64,000 nt of DNA from Cenococcum geophilum. Its lineage: Eukaryota. Each line of letters begins with the position of its first letter. The stretch's first letter is position 1. The stretch is taken from assembly GCA_050273025.1 (NCBI GenBank), contig CP158635.1, positions 11,470,001 to 11,534,000 of the forward strand. Direction: 5' to 3'. Shown here one piece after another: positions 26,610 to 44,753 of this stretch. The notes under the pieces were generated by a model. That model saw only the letters and a list, made by a program, of their open reading frames with translations, was not told the origin of the DNA and did not search any database. Both the position numbers and the translations under genes were made by a program.

Positions 26610-28079
26610 TTGGGGGAAGGGGAGAGGGGGGGGTTCTTGTAGTAATTAGTTATGTTTTTAGTATTTTTGCGCCTTTTTTCCCTTTTTTTTTTATAAAGAG
26701 AAGTGGGGAAGCGATTTTTTGGTGCGGCATTTGGGTGCATTCGGGCGGGTCTGGTGTTTGAGGGTTTGAGTTTGGATTTGGGATGGGATTTTGTACTGGA
26801 AGGGGTTCTATACTGGAAGGGTCTTTTAGAGCGGGGAGGGTGCGGATAGTGAATCGCACCTCGATACCTTTTTTTCGGTCTCTCGAGTAGATGCAGTGAT
26901 ATACTGCTTGTGTGAAGGTATCTTCTTTGAGCTGCGTTGTTATTATGTTGGATTTCTGAGCCTAGGGATGTAGTCTCCTGGGGATCCGAAGAGAGTGCGG
27001 TGAGCTGGTGGTATGGCAGTCTTAATCAGATTGATTTTGTCCCTTCTGGTAAAGCACGAACCTGGAAATGAGGATTAAAATTCCACCATATATAATCACC
27101 AAACTCAGCAATATTCTTTAATGATCCTAAGTCTAAATATGAGCCATCGTAAGAATGTAGAGCTAGTTAGTCTAAAATGCAATAAGGAAGAGATCTAGAT
27201 TAAGGCCATCAGCTACTAACTACATGTTCATCCAAGAGTTAGTTGGCTCCTTAGAACCACCCGGTAGAACTACCACTGTTGAACTCGTTACCGTGGATCC
27301 TGCTCCCTTTCGGTATCGCTAGAAAGCAGAGGTGACGGTGCATAGCACCTGTTGGGTGTTTTGATTTAGAATGGTTTATTGGCCCCTCTATGATGGGGTT
27401 GAGACAGATCGCTCAAATCCTCACCGAGTGTATCACAGAGGGATCAGTTAAGCTCACCTGGCTAAAAGCTCGGCTCACGTGTTCGATGCCGCCGATCGTG
27501 CCAAGTAAAAGGGGTCGAGCTTACTACCTGGTGAGCTTAGCGAAACCGAATGTTGGGTATAGTTATAATATTATATAATTAAAGTATAGCTCTAATATAT
27601 CAATAGTAAGAATGTTAAAGAACTTTATATTAAAACCTCATCAGGCGTGAGTGTATAGGGCTAGGGTTTGTCTAGTGTAAGATTTTCAACATGAAGTATT
27701 CTTTCGACTACACTCACCGAGTCTCGGACTGCGAAGCGTCTAATTTATGAGATAAGCTAAAAGTAAGTTATGTGGAGTCCGCGATCTAAGTTAAGATTAT
27801 AATATATTTTATGCGTAGACACCGGAGATTGGAAAATATATGCTATGCAGTGCCTGAAGTTAAGCTGCACGTTGCTCTCTGTCAGTTAAAACATAGCTGC
27901 GCCGCGCCCAGTTTCAGAGCCTAAAATTGGGTCCGCGTCTCAGGTCACGAAGCGAGGAAGTCTGCACCAATGCCAGTTTCCAGGAGCTTCCAACTTGATA
28001 CAGAGACATATATATATATATATGAGGGTATCCCAAGCTATGAAGTTCCCAGTCAATCCTCCAATCTGCTCTTACCACT

Positions 28080-29405
28080 ATGCCGTCGAATTGGATAAAC
28101 CACTCCATCTCCTCAACACCCGAAATTAAGACATCCGAGGACATTGCGAACGTTGCGCATTGGCGAATTGATGAGTTCTACTTTCTGATCCACGTTGAGC
28201 TACTCTATGGCTCCCGTAGGTCTAGAGGTAGCCTGCCTGCCGAAATCGAAGAACGGCTTCGCGGTTGCGCGCCTCAAGATGTATCGGGGATACTGCAAAA
28301 AGCGCTCATTGCTGGCTCTGTGATGGACTCAGGCTGGCTCGATGACTATAACGATATTGCGGAAGCGATTTCTGTCATTACGCAGGGATATCCAAAGGAA
28401 TACCTGGCGCAACGGAGAGCGCTAAACGATGCTGCCGCCGGGCGAGAGATGAGCAATCATCCCCGAAACAAGAAAGTCCACACCGGTTCAGCATCGAAAT
28501 CCTCTAGCAAAGCGCCAACCAAGTCCTTCCCCTTCCTGAGCCTACCCGATGAAGTCCGCAACCACATCTACCGACTTACGCTCACGCCAGAGCCACTGAT
28601 AATTAGCGACTGGGCAATTGGCTCCTTACCCTCAACAATGCTGCGCAGGACTGAATACGACGTATCAATCGCCTCTACAGGCGACACGCGCAGAACTAGC
28701 TACATCGTGCTCTCGCCCCAGCGCCACCGCTTGGGGACGGAGCTCAACCTGCTGCTTGCCAATAAGCAGGTCCATCGCGAGGCGTCAAAGATCCTGTACG
28801 GCCGCGAGTTCCAGTTTCGCGGCACGGCTGACAGCACCCTTGCGTTCCTGCACGACCATTTCCGCAAGCTGAAGATGATGTCCAGGATTTCGATGCGGTT
28901 TACAACAGGAGAGACAATACCGTTTATGGGCTGCGCGGCCGTGTCGTCTTCGTCGACGACGCCGCCGTCAACGCCGAAGACGAGCTTACTGGCTTGGAAG
29001 AAGATTTTTAATATTCTGGTTCGCGCGGCTTCGGGACTGCACGATTTTGAATTGATGGTGGACAGGAAATTTTGGGATCAGGCACCGTGGTGCGAGGGTC
29101 CGGCGGCTGTGTTCAATGATACGGCATTATGCCAGCCTCGCAGTCTCTCGAAGCACTCAGGAAACACTGAAAACTTCTTGCAGCACGTTGCGAAGCTGTC
29201 TGGCATCAACTTCCGGTTGTCAATCGCTGGTGCGGGTGAAGATCAAGCGAAGAGACACTTTCAGCGCGAACTGGAGAAGTACATATGTGAGAAGATGTAT
29301 AAGAGGCCATATATGGCGGTAGAGAATATTTCTTGTACATGCCGAAAGAGGCTATTGACAGAAGCGTGTGCTTGGGACGGACAGAAGCGGCGGAGAAGTG
29401 GGTGA
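28080..29405 (+). CDS. F-box-like domain protein of unknown function
   Basis: Intronless 441-aa ORF. FPFLSLPDEVRNHIY and later LLLANKQVHREASKILYG are the hallmark segments of a large fungal F-box-like family. The N-terminal ~130 aa are unrecognised. Confidence 0.7.
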   Translation: MPSNWINHSISSTPEIKTSEDIANVAHWRIDEFYFLIHVELLYGSRRSRGSLPAEIEERLRGCAPQDVSGILQKALIAGSVMDSGWLDDYNDIAEAISVITQGYPKEYLAQRRALNDAAAGREMSNHPRNKKVHTGSASKSSSKAPTKSFPFLSLPDEVRNHIYRLTLTPEPLIISDWAIGSLPSTMLRRTEYDVSIASTGDTRRTSYIVLSPQRHRLGTELNLLLANKQVHREASKILYGREFQFRGTADSTLAFLHDHFRKLKMMSRISMRFTTGETIPFMGCAAVSSSSTTPPSTPKTSLLAWKKIFNILVRAASGLHDFELMVDRKFWDQAPWCEGPAAVFNDTALCQPRSLSKHSGNTENFLQHVAKLSGINFRLSIAGAGEDQAKRHFQRELEKYICEKMYKRPYMAVENISCTCRKRLLTEACAWDGQKRRRSG

Positions 29406-30625
29406 GACTTTCTACGAACTCATGAATTCAACGTATTTACTCTATGAAATATGAATCAGATTTCTTTGGAGTGAGATTAAGGTTTACGCTTTAAAAATAG
29501 GGTTGAGGGAATTTAGAACCTAAATACTGCTTCCGCCGGTGAGATTCAATTTTGATTGAGAGGGTCACATGCACCACATCCTACTCTTTCAAACTTGCTC
29601 CCATTTTTGGAGCTTCTGGATCATCTATCATCTTTTCGTCTCAATAATTCTTGAGGAGAGCATTTCAGGGAAAGTTTTCTGTGCGGAAATGTGGATATGC
29701 TAAAGCATTTTCCAGATCGTTTAGTGGATAAGGACAGGATTGTTTGTCAACCCTTGAAGATCTCTAGGATGGGTTAAAATTTTATTGTTAGAACACCGCG
29801 TTTTATGCGCGCGACTCTGGGATCTCAAAACTGCACGGGGCGCTAGGGAGCGTACTGTGCAGGGATACTGTAAACCAGGAAGAACGAGATGGGGAAACAG
29901 GCAGCTGAAAAGCTTGCAGGCGCTTGCAAAATTGGCTTCCGGTTTTTGTATCCGAGAAATTCTCCCCGCAAGGTCTTTCTGCAGCTCTTGGCACGCACTT
30001 TACCCAGGCCCTAGTTTAATGATGGTACAGATCCTAATAGGAGTTACACTATCCCCTGCACCGTCGTCAGCCGTACAAGGGATAGTAATTTTCCGTATAG
30101 TAAACCCACTGAAGTTCACTACGTCGCAATCGCAGTTGCTTTCGTCCACAGATGATCGTCACCCAAAATTTGATGAACGAGCAGCACTCTTTCATACGTG
30201 ATCTTAAGTCATTGCTCTAGATAATATTCAGGATATGCATTCACTGAACGGGCAGGATCAGGAGGGCAGACTAGTTGTCAACTATCAGAAGTGGAATCAC
30301 GTGGATATTGAAGACAGAGCAAAGTAAAGAAAGGAGAAATATCTGTTTAAGATCTTATCAAAAATATAGGGAACTTCGTATCATACTGTCAGTTATTTGT
30401 ATCTTAGGTAAACATGATACGGAAGATGGTGTGCCCTAATTACAAGAGATATGAGAAAGGAACGCAAGAGAGAGATCCTTAGAGAAGGCCGGGAAGGTCG
30501 CAGAATGGTTGGCGGACAGATTGCCAGAATTTCAGATGTATAGTGAAAAGGTCTCGCTATTGCGTCAATACTGCCATGCTGAATCAGAATCACCTTCCTC
30601 AGGGCAAGAATGCTCACTTGCTTAA

Positions 30626-31787
30626 TCAGCCACTGCTGATGTTCAAGTCGTTCCCTACAGAGAAATTGCCAGAGCCCGAGCTTTGAACTCCTTGCCCGCG
30701 AAAGATATGTTGAGCAACTAGTCCATGGGTGCCGGTGGACGAGTCAGATCCATGCTGACCGAGGGCTGCTGTTGCGATGGAAGGCTCTGGCGGGTCCACA
30801 TAGGAAAGGAGCTCCTTGGCACATCCAGCAGCCGCAGCAGCAGCATAATGCTGCCAAGCATCGTTCTTGTGAGAGTCTGCGTAATCAGAGATGCCCCGGA
30901 TGGCGATACATGAATACTCAGTCGTGATACCAGCCGCTTCCATCTCAAAACACATGATATCGCCTACCACTCTCCCGTCAATTTCAGCCGCGTTCGTAGC
31001 GCTCCTCATAACTTGATCCCCAGAGGCAATCAGCCCGTAATGAATCTTGGGAATGGGCTCACGTGGGGTCCGCTGAACCACTTTTATCTTGTTACATTGC
31101 CCACATGTGGCTTGATTATGGATATGGCGATATCCTGATTCGAAGAGCTCATCCGACTCTGCAGGAGGCCGTTGGTAGGAGATCCGAAGATCATCACTTT
31201 TCTGGAACATGGTCAACAAGAACTCGGGGATTTTGTTTTTGAAAATCCTGTGGTCGGACCGCATAATGCCGACAGCACTTCTCAAAATCTCTGGCGGTGG
31301 CCAAAGAAATCCCTTCATGACGAAGCCTTCCTCAGTGCTCTTGCCTAGGTCGTACTGGACCACGCCGCCATGCTGGCCGTCGGGCATACTGACGACCACG
31401 TCGCCCAAGCGGATGTCATTCGTTTTGCTCGGCACGCCTCCTCCAATACCCACCATCAATCGTAACTCGATCGATGGAAATGTACGCGCCATATCCTTTG
31501 CGACAGCCGCTGCCGCACCTTTCCCCTGGCTGCCTGGAAGGCCGGCAAGTACAACATTGTGGCCACTGAGCTCTCCGAGAATATACAGAGTCGACTCGCC
31601 CGGCTTTCTACGCAGACGGACGTGTTCTTTGTCCAGCATGTAGCGGACAGCGCTCATCTCGAATTCTATAGCACACACGATACCGACAGTATAAGCTTCG
31701 TAGCCTCGGCGCTGCTCTCATTCCACACTCCTGATTAGCGCAGGAAATTTGTTGGTCGAGCGGGCATAGCTCTTGTCTACCTTCCAT
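30626..31787 (-). CDS. Stand-alone PNP_UDP (purine nucleoside phosphorylase / nucleosidase) effector with C-terminal amyloid-type motif
   Basis: Motifs YTVGIVCA, VGIGGGVP, DIRLGDVVVS, HYGLIASGDQV, CFEMEAAG, IRGISDYADSHKND.WQHYAA; C-terminal FRGQGVQSSGSGNFSVGNDLNISSG*. The start is inferred at ATG 31787 via intron 31780-31717 (5' end uncertain). Confidence 0.88.
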
Positions 31788-32425
31788 CTTGATCGTCCGG
31801 ACTTGTCGAATGACTCGAACGATGTCACGTGCAGGACCGGTCGTTGTTGGGTAGGGACAAGGAAGTGAAAGCTGAGGTGAAAGTCGAAGAGATGATATGG
31901 GTAAATAAATGGATATTCGATGCTGGTGTCGGCTTGTCTCCCGACAGCAGTGGTGCGGCTTAAGTAGTTAGCAAATCAGAGAATAGTCAATGGGACCGCG
32001 CGTGGGTGATATGGCCATTGTTTGGTTATTATTGAAAGCTCAGCAGGCTTCGAAATCCAGTTAATAAGGGTTCTCAAGCATAACCTTGCGACTAGGCTCG
32101 AAACGTTCCGTTGGGTGCAGGTTTTTGGCAAAGTCTGGACATACCGGCATGAAATCGGTGGACCCGATTGGATACAGGTGTTCCTAGTTTCAGCTTGATA
32201 GGCGTTAAGGCGCGGCTAGTTGCAGGCCGGCCTCAACCGCCCGCAAAATCACTTGGCACAGTGAGCTTTGCAAGGGTCGTACACACTAGAAACAGGAGCG
32301 GGCAGAAAACTACAGTTGCTCAGCCGCTTCGGCCTCCCTTCTCATGAAGTTCTGCGCAACGCTTTTCTGATCTCTGTCACTTATCCTTATGCTCGGATCA
32401 ATAAAATAGAAACGGTTACTTAATT
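31788..32425. promoter_or_regulatory. Shared divergent (bidirectional) promoter region between effector and NLR
   Basis: About 640 bp separate the two oppositely oriented start codons. Assigned from position only; no motif identified. Confidence 0.55.
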
Positions 32426-35400
32426 ATGGACGCTAGACCTAAGAAGATCCGGCCGACCAAACACATATCAGTTTCCGCCGCGGAAGACCAACGCGAACAG
32501 CAACAGCCCTCACCGATACCTGTTCCTCCACATGAGGCTGGCGGAGTGTCTTCCTATCAGAAACAGTCTATTAAATTCACTGGGCAAGGGATTCAAAATG
32601 CTGGAAACTTCAACGTCAGACGGGACATAAACATTAGTTGGTTGAGACAGTTTCCCGGCGTAGCACAGTGTAGGGACTGAGTAGATTAGTGCGAGCTGGT
32701 CCCGACTCCAGCTGCCTGGCAGACCTACGGACAACCGATCCCCGTCACGACAAAAAGCGCATTCAGGACACTAAAGGTGGCCTGCTGAAAGACTCATACT
32801 GCTGGATTCTCGACAACGCCGATTTCCAACGATGGCGCGACGACGAACAGAGCCGACTGCTCTGGATTAAGGGGGATCCCGGCAAGGGCAAGACCATGCT
32901 GCTCTGTGGTATTATTGACGAGTTAAAAAGCCAAACAGGCCTTCTGCCCTACTTCTTCTGCCAGGCCGCCGACTCGCGCATCAATAATGCCACGGCCGTG
33001 TTGCGTGGCCTAATCTATCTGCTCGTCGACGAGCAGCCATCGCTCATCTCGCACGTGCAGAAGAAGTACGATCACTCGGGCAAAGGGCTCTTCGAGGACG
33101 TGAATGCCTGGGTAGCCTTGTCCGAGATCCTTACAGACGTTCTGCAAGATCTGAGTTTGAAGAGCACTGTCTTGATCATCGACGCACTCGACGAATGTGT
33201 GACAAATAGGGCGCAACTTCTCGACTTGATTGTCCAGATGTCGTCCGAGTCTCACTCCAAGTGGATTGTGTCCAGTCGCAATTGGCCGGAAATCGAGAAG
33301 AGGCTAGAAATAGCCGGAGAGAAGGTTAACCTGTGTCTTGAATTGAATGCAGAATCCGTTTCCGCTGCTGTTGGCAAATACATCCAGCATAAAGTGGATC
33401 GATTGGCGAGGCTGCAGAGGTATGACAGCAAAACACGAGATGCCGTACGAGATCACTTGTCCTCTAATGCAAATGACACATTCCTCTGGGTGGCTTTGGT
33501 CTGCCAAGAGCTGGAGAAGATCTCACGACGGAACACTCGCGCTAAGTTAAAGGCGTTTCCGCCTGGACTTGACGATCTTTACGAGCGAATGATGGAACAA
33601 ATATGCAGCTCGGATGATGTTGACATCTGCAAGCCGATACTTGCTTGCGTGACGACCGTATATCGGCCTATCACACTAAAGGAGATAACATCTCTCGTCG
33701 ATATGCAGGAGGATATATCCGATGACCCCGAGTACTTGGAGGAGGCCATACGGCTTTGTGGTTCATTTCTAACTATTCGAAACTGTACCATCTATTTCGT
33801 GCATCAGTCAGCGAAGGACTTTTTGCTCACAAAAGCAGCCGGCGACATTTTTGTATTGAAGATACAAGAGGAGCACCACAATATCTTTTCGAGATCGCTA
33901 CAGGTCATGTCCGAGGTCCTGCAACGCGATATGTACGGTTTAGACGCGCCCGGATTTCCCATCGACAAGGTCAGCCAGCCTGATCCAGATCCATTAGCTG
34001 CGGTACGCTACTCGTGCGTCCACTGGGCTGACCATCTGAGTGACTCGGATTCCTGTGGAAAACACTTAGAGGATCTCCAAGATGGCGGCGCCGTCGACAC
34101 CTTCCTGAGAAAGAAATACCTCTACTGGCTCGAGGCCCTCTCCCTTCTTAAGAACATGTCACAGGGGGTACTTTCAATGGCAAAGCTCGAGGGTTTACTT
34201 CAGGTTAGCCTTAACCAGTGTTACAATTTTACTCAAGGCCCCAACCTAATATCACTTTAGCGAAGGGCAGATACGTCCCAATTAAAAGACCTAGTTCGAG
34301 ATACACGCCGTTTTATTCTATACCATAGATGGGCGATCGAAAACAGCCCTCTTCAGGTGTACGCTTCTGCACTTGTGTTCAGCCCCGCGCGTAGCATTAC
34401 AAAAAATCTGTATAAGAAGGAAGAGCCCGAATGGATTGCAATCAAGTCGGGCATAGAGGATGACTGGAATGCATGCCTGCAGACGCTCGAGGGGCATTCG
34501 GACTTTGTCAACGCTGTAGCCTTCTCCCTGGACGGCACCGTCGTGGCATCGGCATCGGGCGATCGGACCGTCAAGCTATGGGATGTGCGGTCGGGACAGG
34601 AGCAGCAGAAGCTCGAGGGGCATCGGGGCTCGGTCAAGGCTGTAGCCTTCTCCCCGGACGGCACCGTCGTGGCATCGGCATCGAGCGATGAAACCGTCAA
34701 GCTATGGGATGTGCGGTCGGGACAGGAGCAGCAGACGCTCGAGGGGCATTCGGACTCGGTCAGCGCTGTAGCCTTCTCGCCGGACGGCACCGTCGTGGCA
34801 TCGGCATCGGAAGATGGAACCGTCAAGCTATGGGATACGCGGTCGGGACAGGAGCAGCAGACGCTCGAGGGGCATTCGAACTTTGTCAACGCTGTAACAT
34901 TCTCGCCGGATGGCACCGTCGTGGCATCGGCGTCGGAAGATGGAACCGTCGGGCTATGGGATGTGCGGTCGGGACAGGAACAGCAGACGCTTGAGGGGCA
35001 TTTGGGCTCGGTCAACACTGTAGCCTTCTCGCCGGACGGTACCGTCGTGGCATCGGCATCGGACGATGGAACCATCAAGCTATGGGATACGCGGTCGGGA
35101 CAGGAGCAGCAGACGCTCAAGGGGCATCGGGGCTCGGTCAACGCTGTAGCCTTCTCCCTGGACGGCACCGTCGTGGCATCGGCATCGGGCGATCGGACCG
35201 TCAAGCTATGGGATGCGCGATCGGGACAGGAGCAGCAGACGCTCGAGGGGCATTCGGACTTTGTCAACGCTGTAACATTCTCGCCGGACGGTACCGTTGT
35301 GGTATCGGCATCGGATGATCGAACTGTCAAGCTATGGGATGTGCGGTCGGGACAGAAGCAGCAGACGCTTAAGGGGCATTCGGGCTCGGTCGGGGCTGTA

Positions 35401-36285
35401 GCCTTCTCGCCGGACGGCACCGTCGTGGCATCGGCATCGGGCGATGGAACTGCCAAGCTATGGGATGCGCGGTCGGGACAGGAGCAGCAGACGCTCAAGG
35501 GGCATTTGGGCTCGGTCAATGCTATAGCCTTCTCGCCGGACGGCACCGTCGTGGCATCAGCATCGGGCGATCGGACCGTCAAGCTATGGGATGCGCAGTC
35601 GGGACAGGAGCAGCAGATGCTTAAGGGGCATTTAAGCTCGGTCAGCGCTGTAGCCTTCTCGCCGGACGGCACCGCCGTGGTATCGGCATCGGGCGATGGA
35701 ACTGTCAAGCTATGGGATGCGCGGTCGAGACAGGAGCAGCAGACGCTTAAAGGGCATTTAGGCTCGGTCAACGCTGTAGCCTTCTCGCCGGACGGTACCG
35801 TCGTGGCATCGGCATCGGACGATGGAACCATCAAGCTATGGGATGCGCGGTCGGGACAGGAGCAGCAGACGCTTAAGGGGCATTTAGGCCCAGTCAGCGC
35901 TGTAGCCTTCTCGCCGGACGGCACCGTCGTGGCATCGGCATCGTATCGAACCGTTAAGCTATGGCATGCGCAGTCGGGACAGGAGCAGCAGACACTTAAA
36001 GTTGACTTCCCTCTTCGTGAGATTTTATTTTTGAATAACGAATCATACCTAAATACCGATCGCGGAGTTCTTGATATTACACCTACTCGTTCTAGCTCTA
36101 CGTCTTCTGTTACTATACCATTGTTCGTCAATGAAAAATGGATCGTTCGCGGTTCAGAAGCTCTACTTTGGATTCCCCCTGAGTATCGGGCGAGAAGTGT
36201 TGCCGTTTTTGGCGGGTTGGTTGTTCTCGGGCATGCATCGGGCCGCGTTTCGATGATCGTGTTCACTTTACAAGCTCAGGTCTGA
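32426..36285 (+). CDS. Fungal NLR (NWD type): N-terminal amyloid motif - NACHT - 12 highly conserved WD40 repeats
   Basis: Exons 32426-32636, 32690-34203, 34261-36285 (GT-AG introns). HET-E-like NACHT: CLADLRTTDPR..KKRI..TKGGLL, P-loop GDPGKGKT, Walker B LIIDALDEC, FVHQSAKDFL, PLQVYASALVFSP. No HET/HeLo effector domain; a ~70-aa N-terminus ends in FTGQGIQNAGNFNVRRDINI. Confidence 0.93.
34471..35979 (+). repeat. Tandem array of 12 x 126-bp WD40-coding units (last unit 3 nt shorter)
   Basis: 42-aa unit QEQQTLxGHxxxVxAVAFSPDGTVVASASxDxTVKLWDxRSG counted 12 times; units are nearly identical at the DNA level. Confidence 0.95.
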
Positions 36286-37029
36286 ACCACCGCTAAATCA
36301 TAGAATATTATTACTATAGTAAAATCTCCTTAATACGATATGGGGTATATAACGATAACCTCTACATTACGATCTACACCCCTTAATCAAGCCTTTTTTG
36401 GTGTAATATTACGATAATCTGACTTTTGGCAATATCGTTAAGCACCTACCACCAATATCGGTATAACCAGTAGAGAATTTGTATGGGAGAGGGCCCTATT
36501 TAACCAGCGAGGTAGACATCCTAAGCCTTTTTAGGTATTAAGCTCCTCTTTTTCCTACTTATTCACCCAACACGTGACTCTTGATATAACAATACCATTG
36601 GTATTACGATACGCTCGGCCGAACAAACGGTATCGTACTAAAGAGATTTTACTGTAGTCAATACATTGGCTTTGAAATGAATAAGCATAATTATTTATCC
36701 TAGTAACTATAATGGTATCCCTTAACGCTTGCGTCCTAAGATTAAGTGGTCCGTGCAGAACACTAGAATCAAACAACGCATATAGCTTTATTTAATTGAT
36801 TTAATTGGCTCGTTCTTATCGATAACGGTAGGACGCAAACCAGCCTGTTAAGGGATACAGAACTTATGAAGGCATGTATAGTATCAGGTGAAGCTATCTA
36901 TCTATCTATTCTATATCTATATTGTATCTATATTGTATTGTTCGAAGGGTCTTGGCGGGTTTTAATTGGTCAAAGAAATTGGTCCTGGTCACGTGCTACC
37001 CCATTAAATTTTGAATCCTCCCCTTGCTG

Positions 37030-38600
37030 CTGCGAAGCTTTGCAAAAGCTCTGCAAAAGCTCTGCACAAAGCTCTGCTTATAGCCCTATCTAGAGCTTTG
37101 AAGCTCTACTAACACGCAGCACTAATATACTAGGAAGTCTTATGATCGTCTCCACGAACGTCTCCACGAACGTCTCCACGAACGTCTCCACGAACGTCTC
37201 CACGAACGTCTCCACGAACGTCTCCACGAACGTCTCCACGAACGTCTCCACGAACGTCTCCACGAACGTCTCCACGAACGTCTCCACGAACGTCTCCACG
37301 AACGTCTCCACGAACGTCTCCACGAACGTCTCTACGAACGTCTCTACGAACGTCTCTACGAACGTCTCTACGAACGGCTCTACGATCGCCTCTACGATCG
37401 CCTCTACAATTGCCTATACAATCGTCCGTACGAACGTCTCCACCATCGTCTCTACAAACGTCTGCACGAATGTCTGCACGAACGTCTGCACGAATATCTG
37501 CACAAAGCTCTATAAAGTTGTTTACAAGGCCTTTGAAAACAAGCCTAAAGATAAGCTCTACGTAACTCTGCTGAAAGCTCTATTAAAGCTCTACTCCGGG
37601 CTCTATCGAAGCTCTACTCTAAGCTCTACTCCAAGCTCTATCAAAGCTCTACTCCAAGCTCTATTAAAGCTCTACTCCAAGCTCTATCGAAGCTCTACTC
37701 TAAGCTCTATTAAAGCTCTGCTCTAAGCTCTATTAAAGCTCTGCTCTAAGCTCTATTAAAGCTCTACTCTAAGCTCTATTAACGCTCTGCTCTAAGCTCT
37801 ATTAAAGCTCTGCTCTAAGCTCTATCGAAGCTCTGCTCCAAGCTCTATCGAAGCTTTGCTCAAAGCTCTACTAACACGTAGCACTAATATACTAGGAAGT
37901 CTTACAATCGTCTCTACAATCGGCTCTATAATCACCTCTACAATCACCCATACGATCGCCCATACGAATGTCTCTATTATCGTCTCTATAAACGTCTGCA
38001 CGAACATCTATACAAATACCTACACAGAGCTCTATACAAGGTTGTTTACAAGGCCTTTAAAAATAAGCCTAAAGATAAGCTCTGCTCTAGGCTCTATTAA
38101 AGCTATACTTTAAGCTCTATTAAAGCTCTACTCTAAGCTCTACTCTAAGCTCTATTAAAGCTCTACTCTAAGCTCTATTAAAGCTTTGCTCTAAGCTCTG
38201 CTCTAAGCTCTATTAAAGCTCTACTTAAGGCTTTACTAACACGCAGCATTAATATACTAGGAAGTCTCAATCGTTTCTATAAACGGCTCTATAATTGGCT
38301 CTACAATTGCCTATACAATTATTTGTATAAATATCTTTATCTTTATCTTTATAAACGTCTATATAAATATCTACATAAATGCCTATATAAAGCTCTATAT
38401 AAAGTTATTTATAAGGCCTTTAAAAACAAGCCTAAGGGTAAGCTTTATATAGAGAAGCTCTGCATGAATTTCTATATAAAGCTTTACTTAAAGCTCTACT
38501 TAAGGCTCTATATAAGGCTCTACTTAAATCTTTATTAAAGCTTTCTAAAGCTCTATTAAAGGCCTGCTTAAAGCTTTATATAAGGCTTTATTTAATAGTA
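37030..38600. repeat. Higher-order repeat: three copies of a composite unit (anchor + 12-bp array + spacer + AAGCTCTA 11/22-bp array)
   Basis: Anchor CTAACACGCAGCACTAATATACTAGGAAGTCT recurs near 37108, 37871 and 38236. Spacer ACAAGGCCTTTGAAAACAAGCCTAAAGATAAGCTC recurs near 37524, 38048 and 38411. Copies become more TA-rich to the right. Confidence 0.8.
37148..37375. repeat. 12-bp minisatellite (GTCTCCACGAAC)15 + (GTCTCTACGAAC)4
   Basis: Direct count: 15 identical units at 37148-37327, 4 single-substitution units to 37375, then degenerate units. Confidence 0.95.
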
Positions 38601-43600: not shown

Positions 43601-44561
43601 ATACAGTGTATTTAAGGTAATAGCGCCACGTCTTAAAGCATTATACTATAGCAAGTAGTTCTTTATTATGCGTATTATACTATACTTTTAGGCCAGTAAG
43701 CTTCTAACTATAATAAGCGATTAGGTGCTAGTAAAGTTAGTCTTCCTACCCTAAAGGCTGTAGAAGTATACCGCCATAGGCATAATTGGAAGCGTTAGTA
43801 ATTACCATTAGGGGTAGATTAGGGTTAAAGTGGCGAAGTAGGGGAGCCTATATAAACGCAGCGCGTAGCTTACGGAACGCCTACTGCGCGTTATTAGGCC
43901 AGGACCAAGGTTAAAACCATTTAATAGACCCTTTTAACTTACACTTCCGCTTCTTCTCCCTATCTAACATTAAGTCGCGATGCGCCTATATAAGATATGC
44001 GTATAGGGGGTATATAGTATCCAAGTAGTTCCAAATAAATCGCCTATAGAAGTTGGCAAAGCTAAGGAAGACTTAGATATCCCTATAGGACTTAGGCTTA
44101 GGCCATTCCTTAATAGCTTTTACGCGGTTAGGGTCCATTATAATACCCCTAGGGGTAATAATAAAGCCTAGGAACTTAACGTTCTTAGTATAAAAGATAT
44201 ATTTTAATAGTTTAGCGTATAGGCCCCAAGCGCGGAGCTGTCGCAGTACCTGCTTAACATACTCGACGTACTTATCCTTATTATTTAAGTAGATAAGAAT
44301 ATTATCTAGGTAAACTACGTAGATAGTATTTACTAGGGTTTCTAGAGCTTTATAAATATAGCTCTGGAAAGTTATAGGGGCGTTAGTAAGACTAAAGGGC
44401 ATTACTAGGTACTTAAAGTAACTATAGCGTATCTTAAATGCGGTCTTCCATTTATCTCCCTTTTTAATATAAATTCTATAGTACGTATTATAAAGATCTA
44501 GCTTTATAAATATCTTTACATAGCTAAGCCTATTAAAGAGTTCGCCGACTAGCGGTAGGGG

Positions 44562-44753
44562 TGTTATGGGACGGGGCAGTGGCTACAAGACGTATGTATT
44601 CGAGGAGTCTACAAGACGTTGCGCGATCGATCGTAAGGGTCGAGGGCGTAAGGAGGTGATATACCTACGCGTAGCTGACATAAGCTGTACGCGAGGTGTA
44701 CGCGAGAGCACGGGGCTCTCCTATGGAGGCCCCTGCGGTGGGGTTCCGTAATA
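44562..44753 (-). repeat. 3' LTR of element B
   Basis: Direct repeat of 50714-50905 with 6 differences, all transitions. Confidence 0.95.

Follow-up and report, generated by a model that had tools for sequence, protein, structure and literature searches.

The gene pair described here lies in a 64,000-nt stretch of the genome of the fungus Cenococcum geophilum (assembly GCA_050273025.1, contig CP158635.1, positions 11,470,001 to 11,534,000 of the forward strand), referred to below as the window. Two neighbouring genes are transcribed away from each other, with 638 nt between their start codons, and this neighbouring arrangement is the one described for gene pairs that share the PNP_UDP-associated amyloid signalling motif (PUASM). 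The minus-strand gene encodes a stand-alone enzyme, the effector, with a PNP_UDP domain that resembles methylthioadenosine/S-adenosylhomocysteine (MTA/SAH) nucleosidases (MTAN). The plus-strand gene encodes a NOD-like receptor (NLR) with a NACHT domain and WD40 repeats. A short motif stands at the C-terminus of the effector and again at the N-terminus of the NLR. Judged by its sequence, this motif is the PUASM, and the locus is a further case of that published family (Wojciechowski et al., 2022; PMC9815663). The features are collected in Table 1.

Table 1. Features of the PNP_UDP effector/NLR pair and of its surroundings, in window positions.
Feature	Position	Strand	Basis
Effector exon 1 (ATGGAAG, 7 nt)	31781..31787	-	RNA joint; kept in the 95%-identical locus L001
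Effector intron, 64 nt (GTAGAC ... CTAAT ... GAG)	31717..31780	-	Joint 31716->31781, X1 contig; restores frame
Effector exon 2, including stop codon 30626-30628	30626..31716	-	Open frame, Pfam, stranded RNA (X19)
PNP_UDP / MTAN-like nucleosidase domain	30839..31690	-	Pfam, residues 10-293 of the open reading frame; PDB profile search
Linker from enzyme domain to motif, variable, ~45 residues	30704..30838	-	Lowest conservation within alignment A1
Effector-side PUASM, long form, FRGQGVQSSGSGNFSVGNDLNI, residues 341-362 of 365	30638..30703	-	Pattern; profile E 8e-14
Divergent intergenic region, 638 nt	31788..32425	.	Start codons of both genes
NLR exon 1, 70-residue leader with the motif at its end	32426..32636	+	Open reading frame; no Pfam family
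NLR-side PUASM, short form, FTGQGIQNAGNFNVRRDINI, residues 51-70	32576..32635	+	BLASTP, shuffles, profile E 7.1e-10
NLR intron 1, 53 nt, GTTGGT...TAG, phase 1	32637..32689	+	Joint 32636->32690: 3 X19 reads, X15 contig
NLR exon 2: NPHP3_N/NACHT NTPase, winged helix	32690..34203	+	Pfam; Walker A residue 132, Walker B residue 231
NLR intron 2, 57 nt, GTTAGC...TAG, phase 0	34204..34260	+	Joint 34201->34259 (cut +2): 7 X19 reads, contigs X1/X3/X15
NLR exon 3: 12 tandem 42-residue WD40 repeats (34486-35997), C-terminal tail, stop	34261..36285	+	Pfam, TRF
Housekeeping block: kinesin, Bin3 methyltransferase, velvet factor, CTP synthase, squalene epoxidase			

The joined coding sequence of the effector (1098 nt, 365 residues) contains the terminal stop only. 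The minus-strand open reading frame (ORF) at 30626-31717 ends in ...AQHIFRGQGVQSSGSGNFSVGNDLNISSG and a stop codon, the motif FRGQGVQSSGSGNFSVGNDLNI being followed by SSG before the stop. A search by hand found no in-frame ATG ahead of the first conserved strand of this ORF, and the start was resolved by RNA joints that lead to a 7-nt first exon. The N-terminus of the spliced protein, M-E-E-Q-R-R-G-Y-E-A-Y-T-V-G, has its parallel in homologues that begin, for example, with MEERVQSLGYEAYT. The intron between the two exons contains in-frame stops, at places that differ from strain to strain. The initial annotation had given the span of the pair correctly, but on the minus strand it had missed the first exon (31787-31781) and the 64-nt intron. 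The joined coding sequence of the NLR (3750 nt, 1249 residues) likewise has only its terminal stop, and the ORF that begins at the ATG at 32426 reads MDARPKK...KQSIKFTGQGIQNAGNFNVRRDINI. Both introns of the NLR were predicted by hand before RNA was compared with them. A 640-residue ORF antisense to the WD40 array (34353-36275, minus strand) owes its existence to the 126-nt tandem repeat; stranded RNA sequencing, examined up to 34400, gave no antisense reads over the NLR.

The similarity between the two motifs is far beyond chance. When the 40-residue tail of the effector was aligned to the 70-residue exon 1 of the NLR by BLASTP, 12 of 22 positions were identical and 17 were positive, with one 2-residue gap (E 1e-6). 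The Smith-Waterman score of the same comparison was 59; when the NLR peptide was shuffled 5000 times, no score came up to this value (mean 20.2, sd 3.9, maximum 43). In the six-frame translation of the window, the NLR exon was the top non-self match of the effector tail, with a score of 63 and the runner-up at 38. The pattern FxGxGxQxxGxGxF occurs once in the six frames of the window, in the effector tail (30662-30703, minus strand, residues 341-354), and FxGxGxQxxGxF, which is two residues shorter, occurs once as well, in exon 1 of the NLR; 100 shuffled windows contained neither. A profile hidden Markov model (HMM) was built from the 90 effector tails with a recognisable core among 119 homologues (P0003-P0121; the window and its 97%-identical twin P0002 were excluded). 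Against the 1085 ORFs of the window it returned the effector tail at E 8e-14, the NLR exon-1 ORF at E 7.1e-10 and the next match at E 0.78. The initial annotation had placed the motifs at 30703-30638 (minus strand) and 32576-32635 (plus strand), counted 12 identical positions and proposed scoring both against motif profiles; both are present at these positions, the count agrees with the alignment, and the profile recovers both. Its description of adjacent, divergent genes, and of an NLR that has no effector domain of its own, is also borne out. Its assignment of the motif to PUASM was likewise right: the pair fits the published pattern FxGxGxQxxGxGxF, the GND extension on the PNP side, the NACHT-WD40 type of NLR and the restriction to Pezizomycotina (PMC9815663).

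Several properties of PUASM have been described. The motif is restricted to PNP_UDP effectors and to NACHT or NACHT-WD40 NLRs, and all of these proteins are from Pezizomycotina. The prevailing continuation is GND in effectors and ARD in NLRs, after which comes a hydrophobic pattern of four residues, and a histidine often stands ahead of the effector motif (Wojciechowski et al., 2022). In the Cenococcum effector, the tail ...QHIFRGQGVQSSGSGNFSVGNDLNISSG has the GND extension, the four-residue hydrophobic pattern and the histidine ahead of the motif. The receptor is of the NACHT-WD40 type, and its motif lies 62 residues N-terminal of Walker A, on the N-terminal side of the nucleotide-binding domain. 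Peptides from both members of a pair from Colletotrichum gloeosporioides Cg-14 (EQB50682.1/EQB50683.1) were shown to be fibrillar by infrared spectroscopy (FTIR), in the atomic force microscope (AFM) and on thioflavin T (ThT) staining, and a GFP fusion of the effector-side PUASM formed transmissible foci and behaved as a prion in Podospora (Wojciechowski et al., 2022). By a hand count from the text of that paper, the Cenococcum effector motif matches the tested Colletotrichum peptide at 17 of 24 positions. As far as sequence can tell, the reading of the locus as a PUASM effector/NLR pair is supported on each feature that could be tested.

The same paper classed PNP_UDP as an enzymatic effector type of amyloid signalling, and reported that PUASM co-occurs genome-wide on effectors and NLRs encoded by non-adjacent genes; its authors deferred the study of co-aggregation (Wojciechowski et al., 2022). 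The initial annotation had held that amyloid-controlled enzymatic killing was not known to have been shown for a complete pair. The architecture, the name, the amyloid nature of both peptides and the prion behaviour of the effector motif had all been published in 2022, and the novelty was to this extent overstated. The part that stands is narrower: in the literature consulted, no report was found of an NLR that activates a PNP effector through PUASM, nor of an assay of such an effector.

The length of the motif varies. Of the 119 homologous PNP proteins that stand alone, 90 have its core at the C-terminus; among the best 120 PNP matches, 38 show the strict pattern and most of the others near variants. 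Among the 90 effector tails, the G-x-G turn is long in 75 and short in 12, with 3 unclassed. On the NLR side, all six motifs at hand (window, P0243, P0245, P0187, P0195 and P0207) have the short form. They perhaps represent about three independent lineages, so the asymmetry in length is a lead and not a result. Elsewhere both lengths probably occur on the NLR side, because the NLR-side motifs in the supplement of the PUASM paper span 22 and 20 residues (PMC9815663). In the motif-pair table of its supplementary file 4, 11 rows name NLR32, the profile of the authors for the motif, and speak for recurrence of the pairing. A phmmer search with the 70-residue exon 1 against 1.84 billion representatives returned four matches at E <= 0.001, a single short query of this kind being too weak for a survey. 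Two of them, P0243 (84 residues, 89% identical) and P0245 (73 residues, 56%), are short ORFs from relatives that retain the short-form motif; the other two were rejected as low-complexity.

The enzyme domain of the effector was assigned to PNP_UDP_1 (PF01048; E 9.6e-11, 42 bits, cut-off 25.1). A profile of alignment A1 (29 sequences) matched 37 sequences in the PDB, all MTA/SAH or (aminodeoxy)futalosine nucleosidases, with 3eei as the best (E 5.6e-16). The fungal blocks A-x-E-F-E, GIGGG, FEMEAAG and RGISDYAD align on the MTAN blocks AxExE, GGxG, EMEAAG and RxISDxAD, which we take to be the site of the catalytic Glu, the Met-Glu pair and the Asp. They are invariant in A1, and on this alignment the nucleosidase active-site blocks are conserved. 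Across A1 the enzyme domain is conserved, the linker of about 45 residues is variable and the motif is again conserved. Relative to MTAN, the fungal domain has an insertion of about 95 residues between profile positions ~117 and ~217. PADLOC models matched it as PDC-M60C (E 4.4e-16) and as 'Effector PN-superfamily' (E 4e-10), and the NCBIfam MTAN model did so at E 4.4e-19, under its cut-off (68.9 bits vs 169). Because the NCBIfam scores fall under their cut-offs, the domain is classed by sequence as a divergent nucleosidase and not as a housekeeping equivalog. An AlphaFold2 model made on A1 had a mean pLDDT of 56, with the catalytic core partly below 50, and was too poor for a fold search.

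The activity of related domains has been studied in bacterial defence. Cap17 and DtcC were shown to split ATP and dATP to adenine, and eukaryotic PNP domains were found to group in the same defensive clade (Rousset et al., 2023; bioRxiv preprint 10.1101/2023.01.24.525353). The PNP domain of an NLR from Hyaloscypha variabilis (residues 2-308) was toxic in E. coli and acted in vitro as an ATP nucleosidase, with ATP preferred to dATP (Rousset et al., 2023). The initial annotation had named Cap17 and Detocs (DtcC) as ATP nucleosidases, which this work confirms and extends to the fungal domain. The same view of fungal PNP_UDP domains is repeated in a 2025 review (PMC12881547).

The receptor has the domains of a complete NLR. 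Pfam places NPHP3_N (E 2.1e-36), NACHT (3.8e-15) and a winged helix (3e-8) within 32692-34203, and 12 WD40 stretches within 34261-36282; Tandem Repeats Finder (TRF) gives 12 copies of a 126-nt period with 88% matches. Both Walker motifs are intact, A as GDPGKGKT at residue 132 and B as VLIIDALDE at residue 231. The NACHT exon is 60-70% identical to NACHT-WD40 proteins of the HET-E/HET-D/NWD type, whose N-termini differ widely. Exon 1 matches no Pfam family, and the N-terminal HET domain of the HNWD subset is absent from it. Because of this exon, the receptor is placed by its sequence in the NWD2-like subset with a short motif and not with the HET-E type. Three of the best 120 NACHT relatives have a PUASM at the N-terminus (P0187 from Monosporascus, P0195 from Ilyonectria destructans and P0207 from Fusarium redolens), and the motif was found nowhere else in the first 150 residues of these 120 proteins. 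Other NACHT relatives (P0124, P0139, P0153, P0163, P0199, P0189 and P0213) have other short Gly/Asn-rich motifs at the N-terminus (...GDARIHVGN..., ...RLQVGNNY...), or HET or NACHT_N domains; P0124 shares its Ilyonectria contig with a PUASM pair. Since close NACHT relatives differ in this way, N-terminal modules are swapped within one NACHT clade.

Transcription was compared on 30300-34400, with one stranded run of the same species label (X19, identity about 95%) and with contigs from three further runs. Runs with the same species label contain 0.86-0.97, 0.26 or almost none of the words sampled from the stretch. The contigs of X1 and X3 have 0 differences to the window; the evidence for spliced intron 1 comes from the strain that is about 95% identical (X19, X15). 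First mates of X19 map to the plus strand over the PNP gene (depth 13-75) and to the minus strand over the NLR (depth 3-40), so both genes are transcribed, each from the expected strand. Between them the contig depth in X3 falls to 5.2, vs 105-170 over the genes; the NLR contig begins at 32369 and the PNP contig extends to 32017. The initial annotation had let its reading depend on exon 32426-32636 being spliced to NACHT, and a joint 32636->32690 (GT..AG, 53 nt) does connect the motif exon with the NACHT exon. The form that retains intron 1 meets a stop at 32678-32680 and is 84 residues long. It could be a motif-only product, or pre-mRNA combined with a naive gene call. The 84-residue ORF recorded from a relative (P0243) has the same read-through tail.

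The effector transcript seems to differ between strains at its 5' end. The effector intron of X19 is 69 nt long (31711->31781, 5 reads), which on the window sequence is out of frame with the ATG at 31787. It is in frame with an upstream ATG of P0002, where the window and L001 have GTG. Start codon and acceptor use thus appear to be strain-specific. Six X19 reads skip 67 nt after the effector stop and have TG instead (window 30552-30620), and at 30517 a gap of 16 nt is present in X15; the 3' untranslated region of the effector differs among strains. RNA fragment ends are frequent near 30490. Two variants of X19 that fall within the effector motif are synonymous.

Relatives of the effector are numerous. 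The protein search scored 8000 matches, 7961 of them with E <= 0.001, and the best 120 were examined. These are mostly fungal proteins of about 360 residues, from Penicillium, Colletotrichum, Trichoderma, Xylaria, Fusarium, Lasiosphaeria and others. The initial annotation had proposed a search of other genomes for the same pairing, and the pairing recurs in Ilyonectria destructans, in which a PUASM-PNP protein (KAH6985510.1, P0040) and a NACHT-WD40 protein with an N-terminal PUASM (KAH6985511.1, P0195) come from one contig. The two genes are taken as neighbours because their accessions are consecutive. This recurrence was found independently of the lists in PMC9815663.

A metagenome scan with the PNP alignment gave 458 relatives. 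Among the 80 that were retained, a PUASM tail was found in the locus L001 only; a pattern match in L063 spans stop codons and was rejected as spurious. The other loci are 43-56% identical, apart from L002 (89%), which ends at residue 288. L001 matches window 32074-24645 at 95.4%. Its effector has 22 synonymous and 11 non-synonymous codon differences and none in the last 45 residues; three of the 11 fall in the linker (residues 313, 314 and 317). The effector motif is identical as protein in the window, L001 and P0002. When L001 1-2700 is compared with window 31938-38294, L001 has, at the position of the NLR, 2.26 kb of simple repeats, which resemble window 37056-38294 in the opposite relative orientation. 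Since L001 has these repeats instead of the NLR, some close relatives have the NLR and others lack it at this position. Loss by simple deletion was rejected, as the upstream repeats of L001 are wrongly oriented relative to window 37056-38294.

In other proteins the enzyme and the receptor are fused. The PNP domain of P0251 (824 residues) is 89% identical to that of the effector (259/290), up to ...VDPPEPSI; a motif-free stretch of 13 residues follows, and then a NACHT domain 58% identical (296/510) to that of the window. Proteins of the types PNP-NACHT-WD40, PNP-NACHT-ankyrin and PNP-NB-ARC-TPR begin with PNP domains 55-69% identical. In 6 of 118 long PNP-NLR proteins (P0256, P0265, P0268, P0279, P0280 and P0347), one PUASM-like match was found between PNP and Walker A; these six are either all-in-one proteins that retain the motif or merged models of tandem pairs. 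Compared by sequence, three wiring states exist at small divergence: the split pair with PUASM, the unpaired effector (L001, 95% at the DNA level) and the motif-free fusion (P0251, 89%). The amyloid link might have been gained and lost recently and reversibly, as a switch between wiring in cis and in trans, with the length asymmetry making the templating one-way, from the NLR to the enzyme and with no back-activation. We regard this extension as speculative and rather unlikely. Were it true, the locus would offer a near-isogenic system, provided by nature, for the first demonstration that an enzyme, and not a pore-former, is under amyloid control.

In our view the locus is most probably a PUASM-type NLR module made up of two fungal genes, in which amyloid-templated activation of the nucleosidase would lead to nucleotide depletion and death. 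The receptor is a STAND protein of the HET-E/NWD family that has a 20-residue amyloid signalling motif where an effector domain would otherwise be, and in the effector the matching motif closes a flexible C-terminal linker. A ligand on the WD40 propeller would trigger NTP-dependent oligomerisation of NACHT. The clustered N-terminal motifs would then adopt a cross-beta (beta-arch) fold, which would template the C-terminal motif of the effector so that effectors are incorporated in the fibril. Clustering would activate the nucleosidase, most likely to convert ATP/dATP to adenine and ribose triphosphate, with growth arrest or death as the outcome. The biological setting may be allorecognition or defence. 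For this pair the steps, the substrate and the outcome are what we infer, and the two experimental pillars, the amyloid and prion nature of PUASM and the ATP nucleosidase activity of PNP, would hold here by analogy with the other proteins from which they are taken.

Several points weigh against this module. The evidence for the pair consists of sequence and RNA, and the route from incorporation in a fibril to an active enzyme is conjectural for any PNP effector. The NLR-side motif departs from the strict published pattern, its G-x-G turn being short by two residues and RRD standing for ARD. The contigs of X1 and X3 retain NLR intron 1, and the spliced form is seen only in three X19 reads and one X15 contig. 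In L001 the effector is intact, yet there is no NLR within 2.26 kb upstream; pairing with this NLR is therefore not obligatory for the effector. Finally, the HMM scores of the enzyme domain to housekeeping MTAN models are as good as those to defence models. A complex prediction with the NLR motif (35 residues) and the effector tail (45 residues) scored 0.02 against a mark of 0.34, and counts as evidence neither way.

The intron-retaining transcripts lead to a different view, in which the module is decoupled or silenced in this strain: the NLR would be made mostly as a transcript that yields the 84-residue motif peptide, and the effector would answer another PUASM-NLR encoded elsewhere in the genome, or none. 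The contigs identical to the window do retain intron 1, and X1 has intron 2 removed on that same contig. The effector of L001 is intact and its motif unchanged although the adjacent NLR is absent, and PUASM has been reported on effector and NLR genes that are not adjacent (PMC9815663). However, contigs follow the major path at the expense of variants, and unspliced forms of the other two introns are present in X3 as well; retention may thus reflect pre-mRNA or DNA in those libraries. The three NLR exons are open with Walker A and B intact, and the orthologous X15 transcript and the X19 reads are spliced, so we judge decoupling to be quite improbable. A further view keeps the pair and removes the prion, in that the motif would dock the enzyme on the NLR without prion-like templating, either in a finite hetero-oligomer or with the enzyme inactive until released. 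The motif of the NLR is two residues shorter in the Cenococcum and Ilyonectria pairs, a difference that a strict in-register amyloid must absorb, and cross-seeding between the two sides is not known to have been published. The length difference falls, however, within a glycine-rich turn, where a beta-arch can vary, and the short form is also present in 12 of the 90 effector tails. Both Colletotrichum peptides formed ThT-positive fibres with a cross-beta FTIR signal, and GFP-PUASM is a prion in Podospora (Wojciechowski et al., 2022). Docking alone seems to us an equally improbable account.

The effector could also be a nucleosidase that is not an ATP-depleting killer, acting instead on MTA/SAH, NAD-derived or signalling nucleotides with a regulatory, non-lethal output. 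Among solved structures and NCBIfam models, those nearest to it belong to MTA/SAH and futalosine nucleosidases, the domain differs from MTAN by an insertion of about 95 residues, and its membership of the Cap17 clade is putative. Set against this, the score to the housekeeping equivalog misses the cut-off by far (68.9 bits vs 169), and the domain (55-89% identical) stands at the N-terminus of many NLRs, the typical death/effector position. The sole fungal NLR PNP domain that has been assayed is a toxic ATP/dATP nucleosidase (10.1101/2023.01.24.525353). Another substrate or a non-lethal output is accordingly considered unlikely. That the motif similarity arose by chance or composition, between two Gly/Asn/Gln-rich tails, would be conceivable for stretches as short (20-22 residues) and as biased as these, but the shuffle, window and profile controls refute it and leave it practically no probability. 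The composition-preserving shuffles fell short of the observed score in every one of 5000 trials, the NLR exon was the best non-self match of the PNP tail (63 vs 38) with a profile E of 7.1e-10, and the same motif stands at the N-terminus of three of the best 120 NACHT relatives and not elsewhere in their first 150 residues.

A block of housekeeping genes lies on one side of the pair and an AT-rich region with many repeats on the other, which places the pair where a gene-rich compartment of the window meets a repeat-rich one. The AT-rich region extends from 38 to 64 kb (26 kb, 24-40% GC) and contains a reverse-transcriptase relic at 44076-44582 (minus strand). Tandem arrays with units of 12, 23, 46 and 69 nt occupy 37147-38595. 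A 453-residue ORF at 28044-29402 (plus strand) is convergent with the effector and is kept in L001; it has a weak match to DUF7730 (E 1.2e-5), under the cut-off.

As a genome observation, the locus adds no new principle. To our knowledge, the amyloid-controlled death effectors with demonstrated action (HET-S, HELLP/HELLF and Bab, with MLKL downstream of RIPK3) all act on membranes. Activation of a soluble enzyme by a cross-beta template has been predicted from genomes, and the locus offers a complete, expressed and intact pair. With natural controls close at hand, namely the motif-free fused form and a strain without the NLR, it is a reasonable experimental substrate.

The pair can be compared with several known systems. 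The Colletotrichum pair is closest: it too is from an ascomycete, with a stand-alone PNP_UDP effector (EQB50682.1) that has a C-terminal PUASM, GND and a hydrophobic extension, and with an N-terminal motif on an adjacent NACHT NLR (EQB50683.1). In Cenococcum the NLR motif is two residues shorter and has RRD for ARD. In Podospora anserina, HET-S and NWD2 are encoded by adjacent genes and linked by the HRAM motif. NWD2 is a NACHT-WD40 protein with no effector domain; the motif at its N-terminus corresponds to the prion-forming region at the C-terminus of the effector, and its WD40 repeats are highly similar to one another. The Cenococcum pair shares with it the adjacency, the NACHT-WD40 receptor free of an effector domain, the position of the motif at the N-terminus of the receptor and the C-terminus of the effector, and the highly similar WD40 repeats. 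In contrast, HET-S has a pore-forming HeLo domain and two motif repeats, whereas the effector here is an enzyme and has one motif, from a sequence family that is unrelated.

Cap17 of CBASS, DtcC of Detocs and the 'NLRN' protein of H. variabilis have in common with the effector the PNP_UDP_1 fold, the MTAN-type catalytic blocks and, as proposed here, a role as the output of an immune sensor. In those proteins activation comes from a cyclic nucleotide, from phosphotransfer or from direct fusion to the sensor, whereas here the link would be a putative amyloid motif. The fused fungal NLRs (annotated as 'Pfs, NACHT and WD domain protein', e.g., P0268 from Pochonia chlamydosporia, and P0251) are alike in the PNP domain (55-89%) and in the NACHT family (58% to P0251). 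They are one polypeptide vs two in Cenococcum; P0251 is motif-free, and a PUASM-like motif is retained in 6 of 118. In bacteria, the Bab/Agp system of E. coli also consists of adjacent genes with a common amyloid motif, of the BASS type, and the sensor was shown to activate the effector by templating (10.1101/2024.11.07.622273). It is the only complete sensor/effector demonstration that we have met, and its effector is bacterial and resembles a pore-former. The Cenococcum pair differs from it in having an enzyme as its effector and a fungus as its host, and the two motif families are unrelated in sequence.

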